A stretch of DNA of 61,461 nucleotides, filler included, from Candidatus Nezhaarchaeota archaeon WYZ-LMO8 (GCA_004347965.1; 7 parts of 7 records of this genome joined end to end with filler, not necessarily neighbours in it); one strand, 5' to 3'; shown: positions 30,001-36,000, counted from the first letter of the whole stretch. Made by a program: the numbers.

Positions 30001-33000
30001 GGTTGAGCGCACGTTAGAGAAGATAACATTAGATATTGGGGAGGAGGCTAGGATCATAGTTAAGTATAGGCTTAGAGAGATGGGCTACGATGTCGAAGTA
30101 GGCTCATTAATATTGCCGGAAGCTGAGATAAACATTTACGGAGTCTCGGATGAGATTTGCGTTGTAGGTGAAGCGTCCGTTAGAGCGTCTGCGAACATAA
30201 TCGACAAGATAAATGATAGTCTCGAGAAGCTAAGAACTCAATACCCAGACAAGCTTAGATCGAAAATACTGAAGGTCGTTTACACTAGCCTAGCTATGCC
30301 AGACCTAATTGAGAGAGCCGAGAAGGAGGATATATGGGTTTTAAAGGCTACAGGCGATACAGTTAAGCCCAAAATTTACAGTTAAATCGACTTAATAGCC
30401 ACGATTTACTTTCTAAATTTCAAAAATAGAAAGTTTAGCGAAGTTGACTTGAATTATGACTTTCAGAGTTACTTCCTCATCATCCATACATTGTAACTCA
30501 CGATCAATCTCGATGCACTGTACATATTCGTGAAATAGGGAGTGGCTAAAAGCATTATTAATAGGTGGACTTCGTAATGTTTTATGGTGGGTGCGTTGAA
30601 CCTCTCAACTGATAAGATTAGAGAAGCTTTCAAAGTCGTGTACCTTTCTAGAGAGAGGTATAGGACGACTAAAAGAGACTTGCAGAGCTCGCTGAGATTA
30701 GGCGCCTTAGCGAGGGAGCTTAGCAGCTCGTATTTAGAGGTGATTGAGTGGAAGGAGTGGAAGAGGGTCTTAGCGCTGAGGACCTAGCAGAAAAGCTCTA
30801 TAAAGAATTTGAGAAAAGCATACTACCAAAGCTCTTAGAGATTCCAGAGGAGACCAAGAGGTACCTCTACTTCATGGCGTGGCTCAATGAGGAGCTAGAA
30901 AGGAGAGATCTAGGTCGAGTAATAGTAACCGGCGGATTTGCTGTCGAAGTGTATACGGGGAGAATGCACAGGACCATGGACGTCGACGTAATAGTAGAAG
31001 GCGTTAATGCCATCAAAGTGGTTGAAACCTTCCTCACAAAGTTCTCAGAGAGAATAGGTCGAGGCTACCTACCGAGGTATGAAGTTTTGCAGCTAAAGTC
31101 TATAGACATAGTGTCCCCGATCTATGGGAAGAAAGCTCAGCCGACGAAGCTGCTGGTGGAAGGGCTTAGCATCTACTTAGAGCCCGTGGAGGAGCTAATA
31201 ATCACCTACTTAGCCGGCTGGAAGTACTGGAGTGCAACCGAGGATAGAGACAAAGCCCTCTGGTTATTCATAGCGTGGAGGGACAGACTAAACCATGACC
31301 ATCTCGAGAAAAGATCTAGAGAAGAGAGAGTGGAAGACTACTTAGAGCTCTTGAAGAAGAATGCGAATAGAATTTAGAAAGGAGAAAGGTAGTTAACACT
31401 TCCTCAAGCAAGCCACCATCACATCTCTGGTCGTTACTATTAGCATGCGCACCTAGAAGCTCATAGCAGCCGTGATGAAACCTTGAAATCTGGGGGATCA
31501 GTCTCAATTTCACTAACCTATTGCGCCCCTTAGATTACAAAATCTCCCAATAGCTTTATGCTTCACTGACACTAACCATAGACTTTAAGCAACACATGCA
31601 CTTAACTGATTCTATAATCGCGTGAGGTTTAATATCTAGACAGTCACCCTCAAATGAGCTATTTCCTCTTCACATCAAGGCTCTTTAAGCGCAAGTTGCC
31701 ATGTTGAAACTTATCAGAGCTTCATTGTTTAGAGCCCAAGTTCATTGCTATTCTCCTTAGAAGCTCTTCCTCGCTCACATCTAACGCGTGAAGCCAAGTC
31801 TCTAACTGCCACTCGACCGGGATAACTGATATGCCCGCTTCTTCGAGCACTTTTACTTCATCTCTCGAGTTCTCGTAGTTCCACTTAGGCATTATGAACT
31901 TCTTAACCTTGACCCTCTTAGTCTTAATAGCCGCTATTATCTTACCTGCCCCTCTCCAACCTAGCCCCCCAACAGGACCAATCCTACCTTTGATGTCGGT
32001 TTTACCGGTCATTACGATTGATGGGCTTACCGACAACCCCGAAAGCTCTGATATCGCCGCTACACTAAGTGCAACTCCAAGACTTGGGCCTGAGACTCCT
32101 CCCCCTGGAATTCCCTCAAGGGGGCTTACTACTTGGAATCTGAAGTCGTAATCGCTTATATCGATGCCGAGCTTCTTATTCAAGTAAAGCTTTATGTAGT
32201 CCACAGCGTTTTGTGCACTTTCAATAACGCTCACGTCTTCGACGGTGGTCATAGGGCTGATTGCTACAGATTTTGCAGCTCCAGTTACTGTGACTTTACC
32301 GGTACCTTTACTAATCGCACACTCTACTATCAGTAGCATTCCTCTTCTACCTTGAGGATCTGTTGCAAGTCCTAGAGCTACTCCAGGTCCTTGAACCACC
32401 ATGCTTTCTTGGGCATCCATGAGCTCCCTGTCGACCTCGTGCTCTAAAAGCTCTGCGGCCTTTTCGAAGTGATATAACCTTATCTTGTAAGACTCAGGTG
32501 TTATTCTTGATAATAAGTCCGCATCGATAGGCCCCATGAGTTCTCTTATCCTCTCTAAGTCCTCTTTGTAAACCTGGTACACCTCAACAAGTCTTATCTT
32601 GTCCCCTGCCTTCATAGCCTTAACGTATTCGCTTGCAGCTACGACCTCCTGGCTTCTCAACCTATTAGCTTCTCTTATTACTTCAGCTATGACCCTCGGT
32701 GAGACAACCCTAAACCTCTTAATTATGCTTAAAACTCCTTCGGGTGTAACCTCTTCGTGCAAGTGAAACATGTATTGCCTCAAATGTACTCTTACCACGT
32801 CAAGTCTTTCAGAGTCATTTCTAGGAAGCGGTACCTCGATTATGTAGGGCTCAAACCTGTTTAAGACAGCTTCATCTATTGCATCAAGCCTGTTAGTTGC
32901 AGCTATCACTATCACGTTTTCAAGAGGTTGCAAACCGTCGAGCTCCGTCAGTATTTGTGCTGTTAATCTATCGCTTACTGGATCTCCTCTCCTTTTATTA

Positions 33001-36000
33001 GCTATAACGTCAAATTCGTCAAAGAATATTATGCTTGGAGCATTTCTTCTAGCAAGCTGAAATAGGTCTTTAATGTTCTTCTCAGGGTCCCCAACCCATT
33101 TCGCATTCATAAGTAGTTGAGCTGCTGGAACGTAAAAGAACGTTGCATCACACTCTTTCGCTATGGCTTTTGACAAGTAAGTCTTACCACATCCTGGTTC
33201 TCCCCACAGCAAGAAGCCTTTGGGTGGAACCCAATTTAACTTACTGGCAAGTTCTGGTTTAAGGCTGAGAGATATGATCTTAAAGACCTTCTCTTTAATT
33301 CCAAAGAGCCCGCCTACGTCTTCATAACTTACAGCTGGCTTTACCTTGAGGACGGAGCTTAAGACCTCAGTACTCTTCTCCTGCTCCACGTAACCTCTTA
33401 GCTCCCTAGCTATAAGCTTGAAGTCATCTATGGTGACTTTGTATGAGAATTGCTCACTTCTTGGAGCACCTAGCATCCTAAACAGCTTCTCTCTTAATGG
33501 CTCAACCTTTCTTACTCTAACCTTGTTACAGGCATCTATGATGTCAAAGGGGGTGAGTTGAGTCTGCCTATAGGAGCTTACAGACCTTTCAAGCACAGTC
33601 ATTACTTCTTCAGGGTCTAAGTACGTCCATCCATATTTCTTGAGCTCAGCTTTTAAGACGGCAAGTAACATTTCTCGAGTTATGTTTTGATCAAGATCTA
33701 TTACGTATGCTCTTCTCCTGATGTCTTCTCTTATAGATTCAAACATGTTCGTAGCAGCTATGATCACTATCCTCTCATTGGTATTAATTACTCTATTAAG
33801 GTACTCTATGAAGACATCCTGAACTCTTACGTCTTCTCTATCAGCTCCATACAAAGGCTTATCAACCTTCATACCGATGCTATGGAATTCGTCAAAGAAT
33901 ATGACGCTTGGTGTGTCCTCAGCTCTCTTGAATACAATTGCAAGATTTCTTATCGATTGACCATATAGCGGATGAAATATCTCATCACTATTGACAACTA
34001 TTGGCTGAACATTAATTCCCAACTTCAAACCATAAACTACAGCTTCTCTAAGACAAACCTCCGCTAACAAAGACTTTCCAGAACCTGTTGAGCCCTTTAA
34101 GATAAAGAACTTTGGAGGAGGTGCGCCTTTAAATAGCTCCTTCACAGTAGGGTCCTCTATCACATGATACGCTATAGCTGTCATTATTGTTTGAAACTCC
34201 TTATCTCTACCTATCAAATCGTCCTTGGTATTAGGGAACTTCTTGTTAAGTTCATGAAGTCTCTTCTTGAGCTTCTTTGGCGTTAACTTTGCATTCCTCC
34301 ATCTCCTGTACTCTCTATTGGATAAGTATAGAGGGAGTGATAGGAGGGTCCTTAACTTAGGTCTTAAGAGCCACCAAGGTTTCTTCTCTTCAATCTCTCT
34401 CATCGATAAACTCATACCAGCCCCTCCAGTGAACAACTCCATACAATATGGCTAAACCAATAAACATGATAAGCGATATTATGAGGTTCCCAAGCTTAAG
34501 GTCTATTGAGAGTGTAGCGGCTAATGAGTACGCAAGCACACCAACAGTTATGAGAACCACAGCAGCACATGATAATGCAAAAGCGTAAAACATGTATCTT
34601 AGCACTAGGGCTATACTGTCATTAATGCTCCATCTACCAGTCTTTCTCACCTTCATGTCCTTGAGGTCGAGATAGGCGGTTAAGCCAAAGAGTAGTATGA
34701 AAACTGCATAGACCACAATCCCCCAAGGCTCCACAGACCATAAGCTGAGGGAAACAGGTATCTTACTAATAATAGATTGCGAGTCTATCTCTGACGTCAA
34801 GGGGATTACAAGCTTAAATGTTATGTTCCCTGGACAATGGTATGTATTAAGCCTTACCTCACCTTCCTGCGAATACTTTGTAAGTGTTAAGTTAAAGGAT
34901 CCTATCGAAGAAAATAAGAGCTCGCACATGCTCCTCTTGTAGGTCGTTGGATTAATTATCGTAAGAGTTACAATGCTTCTAAAACCTTCACGAAATGCTT
35001 CCTCAACTTTAATTGAAACATCCGGCGGGATTAAGTAATTGAGAGTTACTACATAAGTTCCCTGAACCTTAATCATGAGGAGTTCCCCACTTCTAAGTAC
35101 AACGTCGTCACTTATCGCAGTAATCATTGGTTCTTGTGCACATACCATTGTGAGGCTCATGAATATCAAGATTAGTGATGATGTGAACATGAAGCGTGAT
35201 ATCAAATCATTTATCCCCTTAATCTCACACTTGACGGGGCTCCATAAAAACTGTTCTTCAAGTCTTTCTAGTTCATTGCATCCTTTAAATGCAAGATAGT
35301 TGCTCTAAAACAGCTACTTCTTAGTTTCCTTTTCTCAAGAAACTTTCTTAGGACATCTTGCTTTTTAGTAAATCATCATTGCCAGGGAAACTTCATGCTA
35401 AATAATAGTTAGTTGAAAGATTTATTACCTTAGAAGAATCATTAAATAAACCTTAAAGTCAAAGCTAATAGTATGAAGTCGAGGTTTTAGCCATGAAAGT
35501 TCTTTCAACTCGTGAGAAGGTAGGTGCATTAAAAGAAATCGTAGGCCCTGAGAACGTCATAGACAGCAAGCCAGCTTTACTCATATATTCTAAGGATGCG
35601 AGCCCGATGAGAGGTAAGGTGCCCATAGCAGTTGTGAGACCATCATCTACGGAAGAGGTACAGAGGATAATCTTATGGGCTAACGAGACCAGGACTCCTC
35701 TATATCCTAGAAGCGGTGGCACAAGCTTGTGGGGAGCGATTCCCGTTGTTGAGGGAAGTGTCGTCGTAGACCTGTCAAGAATGAACAGAGTAATAAACAT
35801 TGACGAAAGAAACCTTGTGTGCGTTGTTGAACCAGCCATTACCTTCGGAGAGCTGGAGAATATCTTAGCGAAGCGGGGGCTAAGGTTCATAATGAGCCCA
35901 GAAAACGGAATGGGGGCAACTGTCGGCGGAAACTTTGCAAGTCATGGAACTGGTTGGGGGGCTGGGCCTAACTTCTCAAATCAAGGAGATTGTGTGTTAG

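Follow-up and report, generated by a model that had tools for sequence, protein, structure and literature searches.

Does the overlapping gene pair found in this stretch of archaeal DNA encode a self-contained protease that is held at the membrane, and how would such a protein relate to the AAA+ proteases already described? We examined the whole stretch of 61,461 nucleotides (hereafter the window) from the 93%-complete MAG of a hot-spring archaeon, Candidatus Nezhaarchaeota archaeon WYZ-LMO8 (GCA_004347965.1). The survey's finding of an 897-aa protein with two AAA modules (D1 and D2) and a C-terminal Lon domain, whose gene overlaps an upstream membrane-protein gene, was confirmed.

The gene pair and its start codon

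31722..34415 (-) AAA-AAA-Lon gene, 897 aa plus stop
31722..34442 (-) longest ORF of the same gene, 906 aa
34423..34427 (-) Shine-Dalgarno-like GGAGG, read from the sequence, within the partner's final codons
34390..35205 (-) partner gene (predicted membrane anchor), ORF of 271 aa from a TTG, with an ATG at 35190

The two genes share 26 nt when the protease is started at the ATG at 34415. This start is likely the correct one, in preference to that of the 906-aa ORF, because GGAGG lies 7 nt ahead of it and because, in relatives, a TAG interrupts the extra N-terminal codons of the longer ORF. Residues are numbered here on the 897-aa form; numbers on the 906-aa form are shifted by 9 residues, and with that offset the Lon_C and AAA Pfam ranges reported previously were reproduced. 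In an RNA library, near-identical contigs spanned parts of both genes and one contig of 285 nt crossed their junction, a weak hint of expression given that DNA carry-over is possible.

Distribution and genome context

The protease gene was present in 57 out of 401 sampled Thermoproteota genomes (25 of 161 genera) and in 8 out of 301 sampled Asgard genomes; the earlier figure was 27 out of 121 Thermoproteota. Carrying genomes had one full-length match each (the two matches in G284 were N- and C-terminal fragments), and the Thermoproteota and Asgard proteins were 58–62% identical. The more than 100 clusters at 58–93% identity that had been counted before were not recovered: the listing gives 77 rows at 58–100% (own forms included) and another 9 at 36–39%.

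The genome encodes 20S subunits and, separately, Cdc48-type genes. We detected neither FtsH nor any M41 peptidase domain in it, and no TIGR00764 (LonB) match above the cut-off in this 93%-complete MAG. The absence of LonB is as originally stated; the idea that the gene replaces LonB is weak, and it is not a required substitute, because approximately 305 of the 401 sampled Thermoproteota genomes lack both this gene and a LonB-like one.

The partner protein and the proposed membrane tether

35140..35205 (-) partner residues 1-22, hydrophobic N-terminal helix (Kyte-Doolittle segment 5-23; model helix 2-22, mc379320352dc)
34792..35127 (-) partner residues 27-138, Ig-like beta-sandwich ectodomain (AlphaFold: ten strands, block pLDDT 87–96)
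34393..34749 (-) partner residues 153-271, conserved core with three TM helices (model helices 160-187, 194-229 and 239-261)
34221..34415 (-) protease residues 1-65, basic and helical N-terminal region with invariant W14 and W39 (PWW...PLYL...YRRWRN)

No Pfam or NCBIfam family matched the partner. Its N-terminal helix is probably a signal peptide, while the ectodomain, searched against the PDB with Foldseek, returned nothing at E<=1e-3, the nearest folds being chagasin-type Ig folds (1.5e-3). Within the core, a cytosolic loop is basic (LDLKDMKVRKTGRWS) and the C-terminal tail is acidic (WYEFIDERD). Residues 153-269 of the partner align with the N-terminal residues 1-121 of two Asgard proteases, at 38% identity for Odin P0045 (E 6e-15) and 31% for Promethearchaeota P0064 (E 1e-10). 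On the protease side, residues 1-65 contain 19 K+R against 6 D+E, with helices modelled at pLDDT 74–83, and the PWW...PLYL...YRRWRN motif is also present in more distant subfamilies.

A partner homologue lay immediately upstream of the protease gene in 24 out of 24 close-clade loci, and the two genes overlapped by 14–53 nt, by longest ORFs, in the 23 close-clade loci where the partner ORF was recovered. In the distant clade, a protein with a signal, an ectodomain and TM helices adjoined the protease gene in all six Thermoproteota loci and in the one Asgard locus. These neighbours have two C-terminal TM helices without the acidic tail, two of them are transcribed divergently from the protease gene, and the hhalign probability of homology between close- and distant-clade partners was only 7.9%. 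A partner or partner-like protein is thus adjacent in 31 out of 31 examined loci, and not among closer relatives alone, as had been noted before.

With a threshold of KD19 >= 1.6, the proteases have no TM segment outside the Lon core, except for four Asgard members with N-terminal TM segments; the maximum in our protein (P0003) is 1.55, within the Lon domain. At the four Asgard loci in question, the alignment places the N-terminal PWW region directly after a fused 3-TM module, which continues straight into the motif, and no ectodomain gene lies upstream. Three states of the anchor were therefore found: the full partner, a partner consisting of the 3-TM module only (L112 and L113), and the fusion. 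The earlier reading, in which two AAA rings feed a covalently attached Lon chamber and the upstream gene provides the tether, is consistent with all that we tested, and its tether is strengthened because the Asgard orthologues carry the 3-TM module as an N-terminal fusion.

The ectodomain brings in a rival explanation, namely a dedicated regulatory or signalling protease instead of general quality control, in which the ectodomain would respond to a signal from the envelope or from outside the cell (alternatively, the partner would be the substrate), and the AAA-Lon chain would degrade one or few specific targets. The ectodomain is confidently folded in the AlphaFold model; most Thermoproteota partners have it, as do the distant-clade neighbours, and the patchy spread of the gene agrees more with an accessory than with a housekeeping role. 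However, the ectodomain is dispensable: L112, L113 and the four fused Asgard loci do without it and have no upstream gene for one either. No third conserved gene, such as a regulator, was found in the examined loci, where the pair alone is conserved. We consider this explanation unlikely.

The Lon protease domain

32406..32534 (-) helical linker from the D2 lid to the Lon domain, approximately residues 628-670 (model helices 632-636, 647-657 and 660-670)
31776..32405 (-) Lon S16 protease domain, approximately residues 671-880 (Pfam Lon_C, PDB search)
32082-32084 (-) Ser778 codon (motif GPSLG at 776)
31941-31943 (-) Lys825 codon (motif GAGKIIAA at 822)

In the 906-aa form, Pfam placed Lon_C (PF05362) at residues 674-878 (6.9e-17), with 62.1 bits where the cut-off is 21.1. 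The Lon_lid domain (PF22667) had no match in the protease in the Pfam scan, which did match it in LonA controls. The top PDB match of the Lon domain was the LonB protease domain of A. fulgidus (1z0b, 5.6e-13), followed by others such as LonB 3k1j (3.4e-10), with PDB Lon protease domains ranging overall from 5.6e-13 to 1e-9. In the alignment with 1z0b, Ser778 falls on GDSAS and Lys825 on QKIEAA, which we take to be the motifs with the catalytic Ser and Lys of that chain, and four additional residues precede Lys825. The dyad proposed initially was therefore right for Lys825 and wrong for the serine, which is Ser778 and not Ser777.

We aligned 27 homologues with 37–93% identity. Ser778 and Lys825 were invariant in all 27, down to 37% identity, as were the surrounding GPS.G and G.GK..AA; among more distant proteins (12 representatives and P0042), a regex scan recovered the Ser motif in 12 out of 13 and the Lys motif in 9 out of 13. 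Judging from these motifs, the Ser778-Lys825 dyad would be catalytically competent. The spacing is atypical: LonA and LonB have a constant 42 residues between Ser and Lys according to PMC9569914, and the spacing here exceeds that value by 4 residues.

This spacing would suit another explanation, an unfoldase or segregase whose Lon-like domain does not cut proteins and instead provides a base for oligomerisation or regulation, as in RadA/Sms, ComM or BrxL, and protease-inactive Lon-like domains are indeed known. The invariance of both residues and of their motifs in the 27 sequences, together with the recurrence of the motifs in the more distant proteins, speaks against it, and we regard it as quite improbable.

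The two AAA modules

33381..34220 (-) D1, divergent classic-clade AAA module (alignment, D1-only search)
34071-34094 (-) D1 Walker A, GSTGSGKS at 108 (motif location)
32535..33380 (-) D2, well-conserved classic AAA module (Pfam, PDB search, alignment, motif location)
33180-33203 (-) D2 Walker A, GEPGCGKT at 405 (motif location)

Pfam assigned AAA to two stretches of the 906-aa form (1.2e-54), and the positions given before for GSTGSGKS (108), GEPGCGKT (405) and FFDE (173 and 464) were found again in the sequence. D1 has its Walker B at FFDE173-176 and a pore loop at PLYGQ149-153; G108, G111, G113, K114, G152, D175, E176 and R233-235 were invariant among the 27 sequences, and Y151 of the pore loop was present in at least 90% of them. 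D2 has its Walker B at FFDE464-467, the pore loop AKWVG438-442, sensor-1 residues T507 and N508, ELDGL at 491, and a single arginine (R520) in the SRH, where VAT has two in the alignment. The Walker A and B motifs of both modules, as well as the KWVG pore loop of D2, were invariant or nearly so across the same 37–93% identity range. The sensor-1 Asn of D1 is not retained in the distant clade, and D1 could bind ATP without hydrolysing it.

The match to VAT in the PDB had been described as covering two stretches. These correspond to D1 and D2 of VAT, both aligned to the second module of the query (337-565), and are uninformative on D1. Searched alone, D1 matched VAT 5vc7 (1e-18) and aligned better with VAT D1 (44 bits) than with VAT D2 (25 bits); against the D2 profile of its own family it scored 25–50 bits, compared with approximately 150 bits for Cdc48 D1 against the same profile. 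The CDC48 model matched co-linearly (residues 67-679 against model positions 170-723), and the full structure model, a monomer, matched p97/CDC48 in Foldseek over approximately 630 columns (E 3e-29). The designation "Cdc48/VAT-type" is borne out by this co-linearity and by the best matches, but not by the score for TIGR01243 (Cdc48; 214.1 bits against a cut-off of 802.65), nor by the AAA domain tree, which at a support of 0.285 did not separate out a Cdc48 origin of D1 and D2. In addition, CDC48_N and CDC48_2 (PF02359 and PF02933; double-psi barrel and beta-clam) had no match in the protease, whereas both were present in the true Cdc48 matches (P0087-P0121).

An anti-virus or conflict system of the IetAS kind, combining an AAA ATPase with a serine protease, is suggested by matches to the PADLOC IetA models (4e-38) and to NCBIfam IteA_antiphage (4e-35). 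Those matches are confined, however, to the generic AAA core of D2 (382-612) and reach 121.7 bits against the IteA cut-off of 510; the single full-length match per genome (fragments in G284 aside), the identity between Thermoproteota and Asgard proteins and the fixed synteny with a membrane anchor also argue against it, and no defence genes were recognised in the neighbourhood, leaving it very improbable. Finally, a Cdc48-like unfoldase feeding the 20S proteasome, with an accessory Lon domain, is hardly credible: the genome has 20S subunits and the sequence is closest to VAT/Cdc48, but 20S docking requires a C-terminal HbYX motif, and here the Lon domain occupies the C-terminus, the tail is non-conserved, the Cdc48 N-domain is missing and Cdc48-type genes are encoded separately.

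Proposed function

The observed basis consists of the domain content, the motif conservation, the synteny, the gene fusion and the lack of TM segments in the protease. We assign a probability of about 0.65 to the reading that the overlapping gene pair encodes a membrane-tethered, ATP-dependent, self-compartmentalising protease, probably a kind of membrane-bound degradation machine that has not been described so far. From that basis we infer an oligomer, ATPase and protease activities, direct binding of the partner, and the substrates. Copies of the 897-aa chain, presumably six, would come together in a ring whose D1, D2 and Lon tiers lie one above another. The ring would sit against the cytoplasmic side of the membrane, docked by the basic helices at the N-terminus of the chain to the partner's 3-TM module; the partner would run from signal peptide through Ig-like ectodomain and three TM helices to an acidic cytosolic tail. 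D1 would point toward the membrane with the peptidase distal, the polarity of FtsH and LonB. Substrates, either membrane proteins or cytosolic proteins encountered at the membrane, may be caught by the aromatic residues of the pore loops, Tyr in D1 and Trp in D2. Both rings would use ATP to unfold the substrates and thread them into the chamber formed by the Lon domains, for cleavage by the Ser778-Lys825 dyad.

A more specific version is tentative, and we put it at somewhat less than even. In it, membrane-bound AAA proteases would have been assembled independently a third time, beside FtsH and LonB, as a three-tier D1-D2-Lon hexamer in which a Cdc48-like double ring tops a Lon chamber, with an 18-helix TM collar and an extracellular Ig-like crown. 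The complex would pull proteins out of the membrane and destroy them, both in Thermoproteota of hot springs and in some Asgard archaea, and it would stand alone among known natural type-II AAA unfoldases in being joined covalently to its peptidase. If true, this thermophile fusion of two rings and a peptidase would offer a compact, stable object for studying ring coordination during translocation into a chamber, as well as a candidate for membrane-protein degradation in archaea without FtsH and LonB. The anchor, which occurs in split, reduced and fused form, offers a ready-made test of how membrane tethering arises.

Comparison with known systems

No description of a double-AAA-Lon protein was found in the literature, and calling it the first of its kind rests solely on this. 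The Lon_C domain and the Ser-Lys dyad place the protein with family S16, but the ATPase next to the protease domain is not of the Lon type (HCLR clade), the modules matching the classic-clade CDC48, PAN and FtsH instead. Unlike the ATP-independent LonC, with its degenerate ATPase motifs, it has Walker A and B intact and invariant in both modules.

It resembles archaeal LonB (MEROPS S16.005) as a membrane-bound single chain that joins AAA+ to a Lon Ser-Lys protease, and LonB gave the top PDB matches of the Lon domain. LonB has one AAA+ module of the Lon type that houses the TM anchor, and an Asp stands before its catalytic Ser (PMC9569914), whereas here there are two classic-clade modules, the anchor is separate or an N-terminally fused 3-TM module, Pro (GPS) precedes the Ser and the Lys is preceded by four additional residues. 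Between Walker A and B, where LonB has its anchor, there is no segment with KD19 >= 1.6, and TIGR00764 scored 59.8 bits against a cut-off of 516.6. The Pro before the catalytic Ser is shared with the A-type centre of LonA and of LonBA, a proposed subfamily with an N-terminal membrane anchor (PMC9569914). Both have a single Lon-type AAA+ module with the Lon_lid that is missing here, and LonA has a LON substrate-binding N-domain (PF02190), with no match in our protein, which scored 80.8 bits against the TIGR00763 (LonA) cut-off of 608.05. The claim of a fourth Lon architecture had overlooked LonBA (PMC9569914).

FtsH shares the TM and ectodomain anchor, the classic-clade AAA and the peptidase at the membrane, in the same order and polarity, and its model matches D2 (1.8e-41). 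FtsH differs in having one AAA ring, an M41 zinc peptidase and its anchor in cis, compared with what would be two rings, a Lon serine peptidase and an anchor mostly in trans. VAT, Cdc48 and p97 share the tandem classic D1-D2 and gave the best sequence and fold matches, and both rings have an aromatic pore loop when aligned with VAT. In contrast to VAT/Cdc48, the peptidase here is covalent and not a separate 20S particle, and the protease would be tethered to the membrane. To our knowledge, characterised AAA+ proteases have either a single ring fused to the peptidase (Lon, FtsH) or a separate one- or two-ring unfoldase docked to it (ClpAP, Cdc48-20S). Beside these, the protein is, by its domain sequence, a new architectural variant of AAA+ protease, whose activity and assembly we infer.

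Gene structure of the AAA-AAA-Lon protease

The protease gene and the gene of its membrane partner are both located on the 8.5-kb contig G000:C38, one of several contigs that are joined via N runs in the window, and correspond to the following open reading frames (ORFs):

31722..34442, minus strand: longest ORF of the AAA-AAA-Lon protease, 906 aa
34390..35205, minus strand: ORF of the membrane partner, 271 aa, TTG start

ATG 34415 is most likely the true start of the protease, yielding a protein of 897 aa, because a GGAGG lies 7 nt 5' of this codon within the final codons of the partner gene, two database forms of the protein (P0003 and P0006) start there, and the nine extra N-terminal codons are broken by TAG in several relatives (e.g. 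locus L097, where 1498 marks the start of the match and 1525 that of the ORF). Counted from this codon, the protease gene shares 26 nt with the partner gene, and residue numbers refer to the 897-aa form unless the 906-aa form is stated.

An FAD_binding_4 oxidase gene (35493-36740, plus strand; 7.7e-33) is divergent to the operon and enters an N run at the contig end. Two ORFs were found downstream of the protease gene, one of 231 aa with a coiled-coil-rich N-terminal half (29690-30385, plus strand) and one of 209 aa (30748-31377, plus strand); neither had a Pfam match at E ≤ 0.01, and both were absent beside the gene pair in the other loci with ORFs listed.

Domain composition and relation to curated families

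Pfam search of the protease detected two AAA domains (1.2e-54 combined) and a Lon_C domain (6.9e-17, 62 bits against a cut-off of 21.1), and no further specific domain. The top NCBIfam model was CDC48 (3.5e-63), with 214 bits far under its cut-off of 802.65; this match was co-linear, residues 67-679 of the 906-aa form corresponding to model positions 170-723. The PAN model (207 bits) and the FtsH model also remained under their cut-offs, while LonA scored 80.8 bits against 608 and LonB 59.8 bits against 516.6, and the protease was covered by no curated NCBIfam family. Membership tests placed it in none of LonA, LonB, LonC and Cdc48, and it is classed here as an apparently new architectural form of AAA+ protease with a Lon-family peptidase. 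Lon classification reviews, as excerpted, name LonA, LonB, LonC and LonBA only (PMC9569914), and the excerpt of a 2008 survey lists five Crenarchaeota genomes in which Lon was not found (PMC2605481). The fusion of two AAA modules with Lon was undescribed in the full-text literature searched; subscription papers, MEROPS, InterPro and arCOG tables were outside this search.

The survey's finding had reported a match to VAT (5g4g, 1.5e-78) in two stretches. The match is real, but the second module (D2) of the query accounts for both stretches, pairing once with VAT D1 and once with VAT D2. The first module (D1) alone matched VAT and Cdc48 in the PDB at 1e-18, and its alignment reached 44 bits with VAT D1 but only 25 bits with VAT D2. 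For the Lon domain alone, the best PDB match was the A. fulgidus LonB protease domain (1z0b, 5.6e-13), followed by T. onnurineus LonB, B. subtilis LonA and E. coli Lon. The AlphaFold model of the full-length protease (mean pLDDT 80.1, pTM 0.46) matched p97/CDC48 chains over ~630 columns (E 3e-29).

We also placed both modules in a tree of 158 AAA domains, which was midpoint-rooted and included few single-ring outgroups. The D1 of the family formed a long isolated branch; its D2 was monophyletic (support 0.997) and was placed amid Cdc48 D2 and single-ring AAAs with a support of just 0.285. The tandem AAA is co-linear with Cdc48, with D1 closest to D1, and it may plausibly derive from Cdc48.

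Conservation of the active sites

Conservation was examined in an alignment of 27 homologues with 37–93% identity to the query. In D1, the Walker A (G108, G111, G113, K114) and Walker B (D175, E176) residues, the pore-loop Gly152 and R233-R235 were invariant or nearly so, and Tyr151 was present in at least 90%. The same degree of conservation was seen in D2 for Walker A (G405...T412), Walker B (D466, E467), sensor-1 T507/N508, R520 and the DG of ELDGL. The D2 pore loop reads KWVG in the close clade (relatives at 61–100% identity) and is shorter in part of the distant clade (about 38% identity), with G442 invariant throughout. Some features call for caution in reading the sites as intact: D1 is far more divergent than D2 in this family, and its sensor-1 Asn is not retained in the distant clade. 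Likewise, the D2 of the protease has a single SRH arginine, whereas VAT has two in the alignments.

In the Lon domain, G776, P777, S778, G822, G824 and K825 were invariant or nearly so. The catalytic serine, earlier placed at position 777, is Ser778 by its motif position. The Ser778 and Lys825 motifs fall on the corresponding Ser/Lys motifs of the A. fulgidus LonB protease domain, with four additional residues (GWRG) before Lys825. The alternative that the Lon-like domain serves as a non-proteolytic platform was rated lower.

The membrane partner and its fusion in Asgard archaea

The partner matched no Pfam or NCBIfam family. Its AlphaFold model (pLDDT 85.4) has four parts:

Residues 2-22: N-terminal hydrophobic helix
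Residues 27-138: ten-strand beta sandwich, confident
Between sandwich and helices: disordered linker
Residues 160-187, 194-229 and 239-261: three long helices

The charge pattern assigns two parts to the cytoplasmic side, a basic loop (LDLKDMKVRKTGRWS) and an acidic tail (WYEFIDERD). Foldseek retrieved nothing for this model at E ≤ 1e-3, the sandwich being placed weakly among Ig-like folds (best 1.5e-3), and the ESM Atlas gave no usable match for protein P0002 (best scores 0.79 and 0.76) and none for the partner at locus L118. A search for longer proteins containing the 3-TM module of the partner found none, which is weak evidence since the method relies on shared exact words.

The protease itself lacks TM-like segments (maximum KD19 of 1.55, within the Lon core). 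Its residues 1-65 are helical and basic (19 K/R vs 6 D/E), and W14 and W39 are invariant. All four Asgard members of the alignment (Odin P0045 and P0066, Hod P0063, Promethearchaeota P0064; 989–1015 aa), in turn, carry a ~100-aa N-terminal extension with TM segments. By BLASTP, partner residues 153-269 aligned with residues 1-121 of P0045 (38% identity, E 6e-15) and of P0064 (31% identity, E 1e-10), and the C-terminal ...IDE of the partner matched the ...DEE that directly precedes the PWW motif in both proteins. The 3-TM module is therefore encoded on its own in Thermoproteota but forms the protease N-terminus in Asgard, and, as read from these alignments, the tie between partner and protease is a gene-fusion (Rosetta-stone) link. 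Complex prediction with partner residues 150-271 and protease residues 1-110 scored 0.16 and 0.13, where the mark is 0.32, and favours neither binding nor its absence.

Distribution and synteny

The earlier report of the gene in both Thermoproteota and Asgard archaea was borne out: we detected it in 57 out of 401 sampled Thermoproteota genomes (E ≤ 1e-100; 25 of 161 genera), with 31 of the 334 high-quality ones among the holders, and in 8 out of 301 sampled Asgard genomes, Promethearchaeum syntrophicum MK-D1 lacking it. A pattern search on generic Walker A/B motifs returned ordinary Cdc48/FtsH-type loci only (L013-L090).

We fetched 30 loci from Thermoproteota, 24 of the close clade, including that of the window, and 6 of the distant clade. 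A partner homologue ended at the protease start in all 24 close-clade loci (tblastn E 1e-12 to 0), and the partner ORF was recovered in 23 of them (L094 excepted), overlapping the protease gene by 14–53 nt. The partners at L112 and L113 (124–134 aa) consist of the 3-TM module only, without signal peptide or ectodomain. No tblastn match to the partner was found in the 6 distant-clade loci (~38% identity), and in all of them a neighbouring protein of 243–260 aa adjoins the protease gene, with an N-terminal hydrophobic segment, a ~170-aa ectodomain and two C-terminal TM helices (4 upstream on the same strand, 2 divergently transcribed). Compared with the close-clade partner by hhalign, these neighbours reached a probability of 7.9%, which does not establish homology.

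No ectodomain gene was found upstream of the four full-length fused Asgard loci L127-L130. At L133, an Asgard locus of the distant clade, a 309-aa partner is encoded separately and overlaps the protease start. Upstream of two fused loci of Promethearchaeota/Hod type there is a gene with a ~200-aa product unrelated to the partner (L127:765-1358 and L128:752-1366); the L127 product matches a Trm112p-like zinc ribbon (1.9e-09).

The Lon domain alone had 26 matches at E ≤ 1e-10 among 1.84 billion representatives. According to Pfam, 12 of the 18 long matches combined two AAA stretches with Lon_C (897–1120 aa), 5 were ordinary LonA and one had Lon_C only. Most of the 12 kept GPSAG and GGL.[YWFH][RK]G.GK..AA, including the 4-residue insertion; 7 kept the N-terminal WW...PL...Y..R signature, and in the other 5 the WW motif is replaced by a long, charged extension of the N-terminus that lacks TM segments. 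This divergent subfamily with two AAA stretches and Lon_C (P0131, P0134, P0137, P0157, P0163; 967–1067 aa) shows no N-terminal TM run as in the Asgard fusions, only one weak hydrophobic segment in P0163, and may be a soluble version. The metagenomic representative P0196 (1120 aa) adds a C-terminal BSP peptidase domain (PF04450, 9.5e-15) to two AAA and Lon_C, with one Walker A regex match and zero Walker B.

The few named members among these matches are archaeal MAGs (Marsarchaeota, 'archaeon'). Relatives, all MAG-derived, bear the database names 'AAA family ATPase', 'SpoVK/Ycf46/Vps4 family' or 'hypothetical'. NCBI lists P0065 (884 aa, 59% identity) under 'Methylomirabilota bacterium'; it is probably a mis-binned contig, because every other named member is archaeal.

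Genome setting and the LonB question

The host MAG (1.35 Mb, 93% complete) has no M41 (FtsH) peptidase, and the survey's statement that it lacks LonB agrees with our search, which gave no match above the cut-off. Its sole other Lon_C protein, with Lon_C alone (L002:1234-2067, plus strand, equal to G000:C42; 277 aa), has an N-terminal TM segment, a PF05362 match (5.8e-12) and a GPSAG motif, and looks like an ATP-independent membrane peptidase from its sequence. No PAN was found in the MAG above the NCBIfam cut-off, the best other ORF being one of 418 aa on C25 (188.8 bits). Four contig ends (C17, C54, C72 and C2; L005-L008) interrupt Cdc48-type genes, leaving two N-terminal and two C-terminal halves, which probably represent two paralogues that break the assembly. 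Three 20S subunit genes are present; Cdc48 feeding the 20S was rated lower as an explanation.

None of the 401 sampled Thermoproteota genomes had a LonB above the curated cut-off. LonB-like matches (E ≤ 1e-30) occurred in 42, and 3 of these also hold the protease gene, against ~6 expected by chance. The ~350-bit LonB-like matches came from 22 genomes, none with the protease gene against ~3 expected; as the genomes are related, neither comparison serves as a test of complementarity. About 305 genomes had neither gene. Given the lack of a curated LonB, the 3 co-holders and the ~305 genomes with neither, the case for the protease as a LonB replacement is weak. The LonB-like genes form two groups under the TIGR00764 cut-off, one of about 345–370 bits (735–780-aa ORFs) and one of about 130–165 bits (800–845-aa ORFs), and in both the match spans model positions ~155 to ~600.

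The DNA was present in hot-spring metagenomes of several studies. One metatranscriptomic library contained near-identical contigs over parts of both genes, including a 285-nt contig (34260-34544) that crosses the gene junction; this is only a hint that both genes are expressed, as such libraries may carry DNA and contigs cannot show a transcript.

Proposed function and comparison with known systems

The best-supported reading of the sequences is that of a membrane-tethered, ATP-dependent, self-compartmentalising protease. It would form a ring, presumably a hexamer, with the D1, D2 and Lon tiers stacked, in which the N-terminal region and the 3-TM module would keep D1 at the membrane. Since the ectodomain is optional, a regulatory or stabilising role is more likely for it than an essential one. 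A protease dedicated to specific signalling was rated lower. A defence system was likewise rated lower and was dropped, the PADLOC matches covering the generic AAA core only.

Compared with LonA and LonB, in which, by the excerpted review, exactly 42 residues separate the Ser from the Lys, with, before the catalytic Ser, a Pro in the A type and an Asp in the B type (PMC9569914), the protease family has Pro before Ser and 46 intervening residues. The proposed polarity would be like that of FtsH and LonB, and LonB has been suggested, in the excerpt of one source, as an FtsH stand-in in archaea (PMC4864567).
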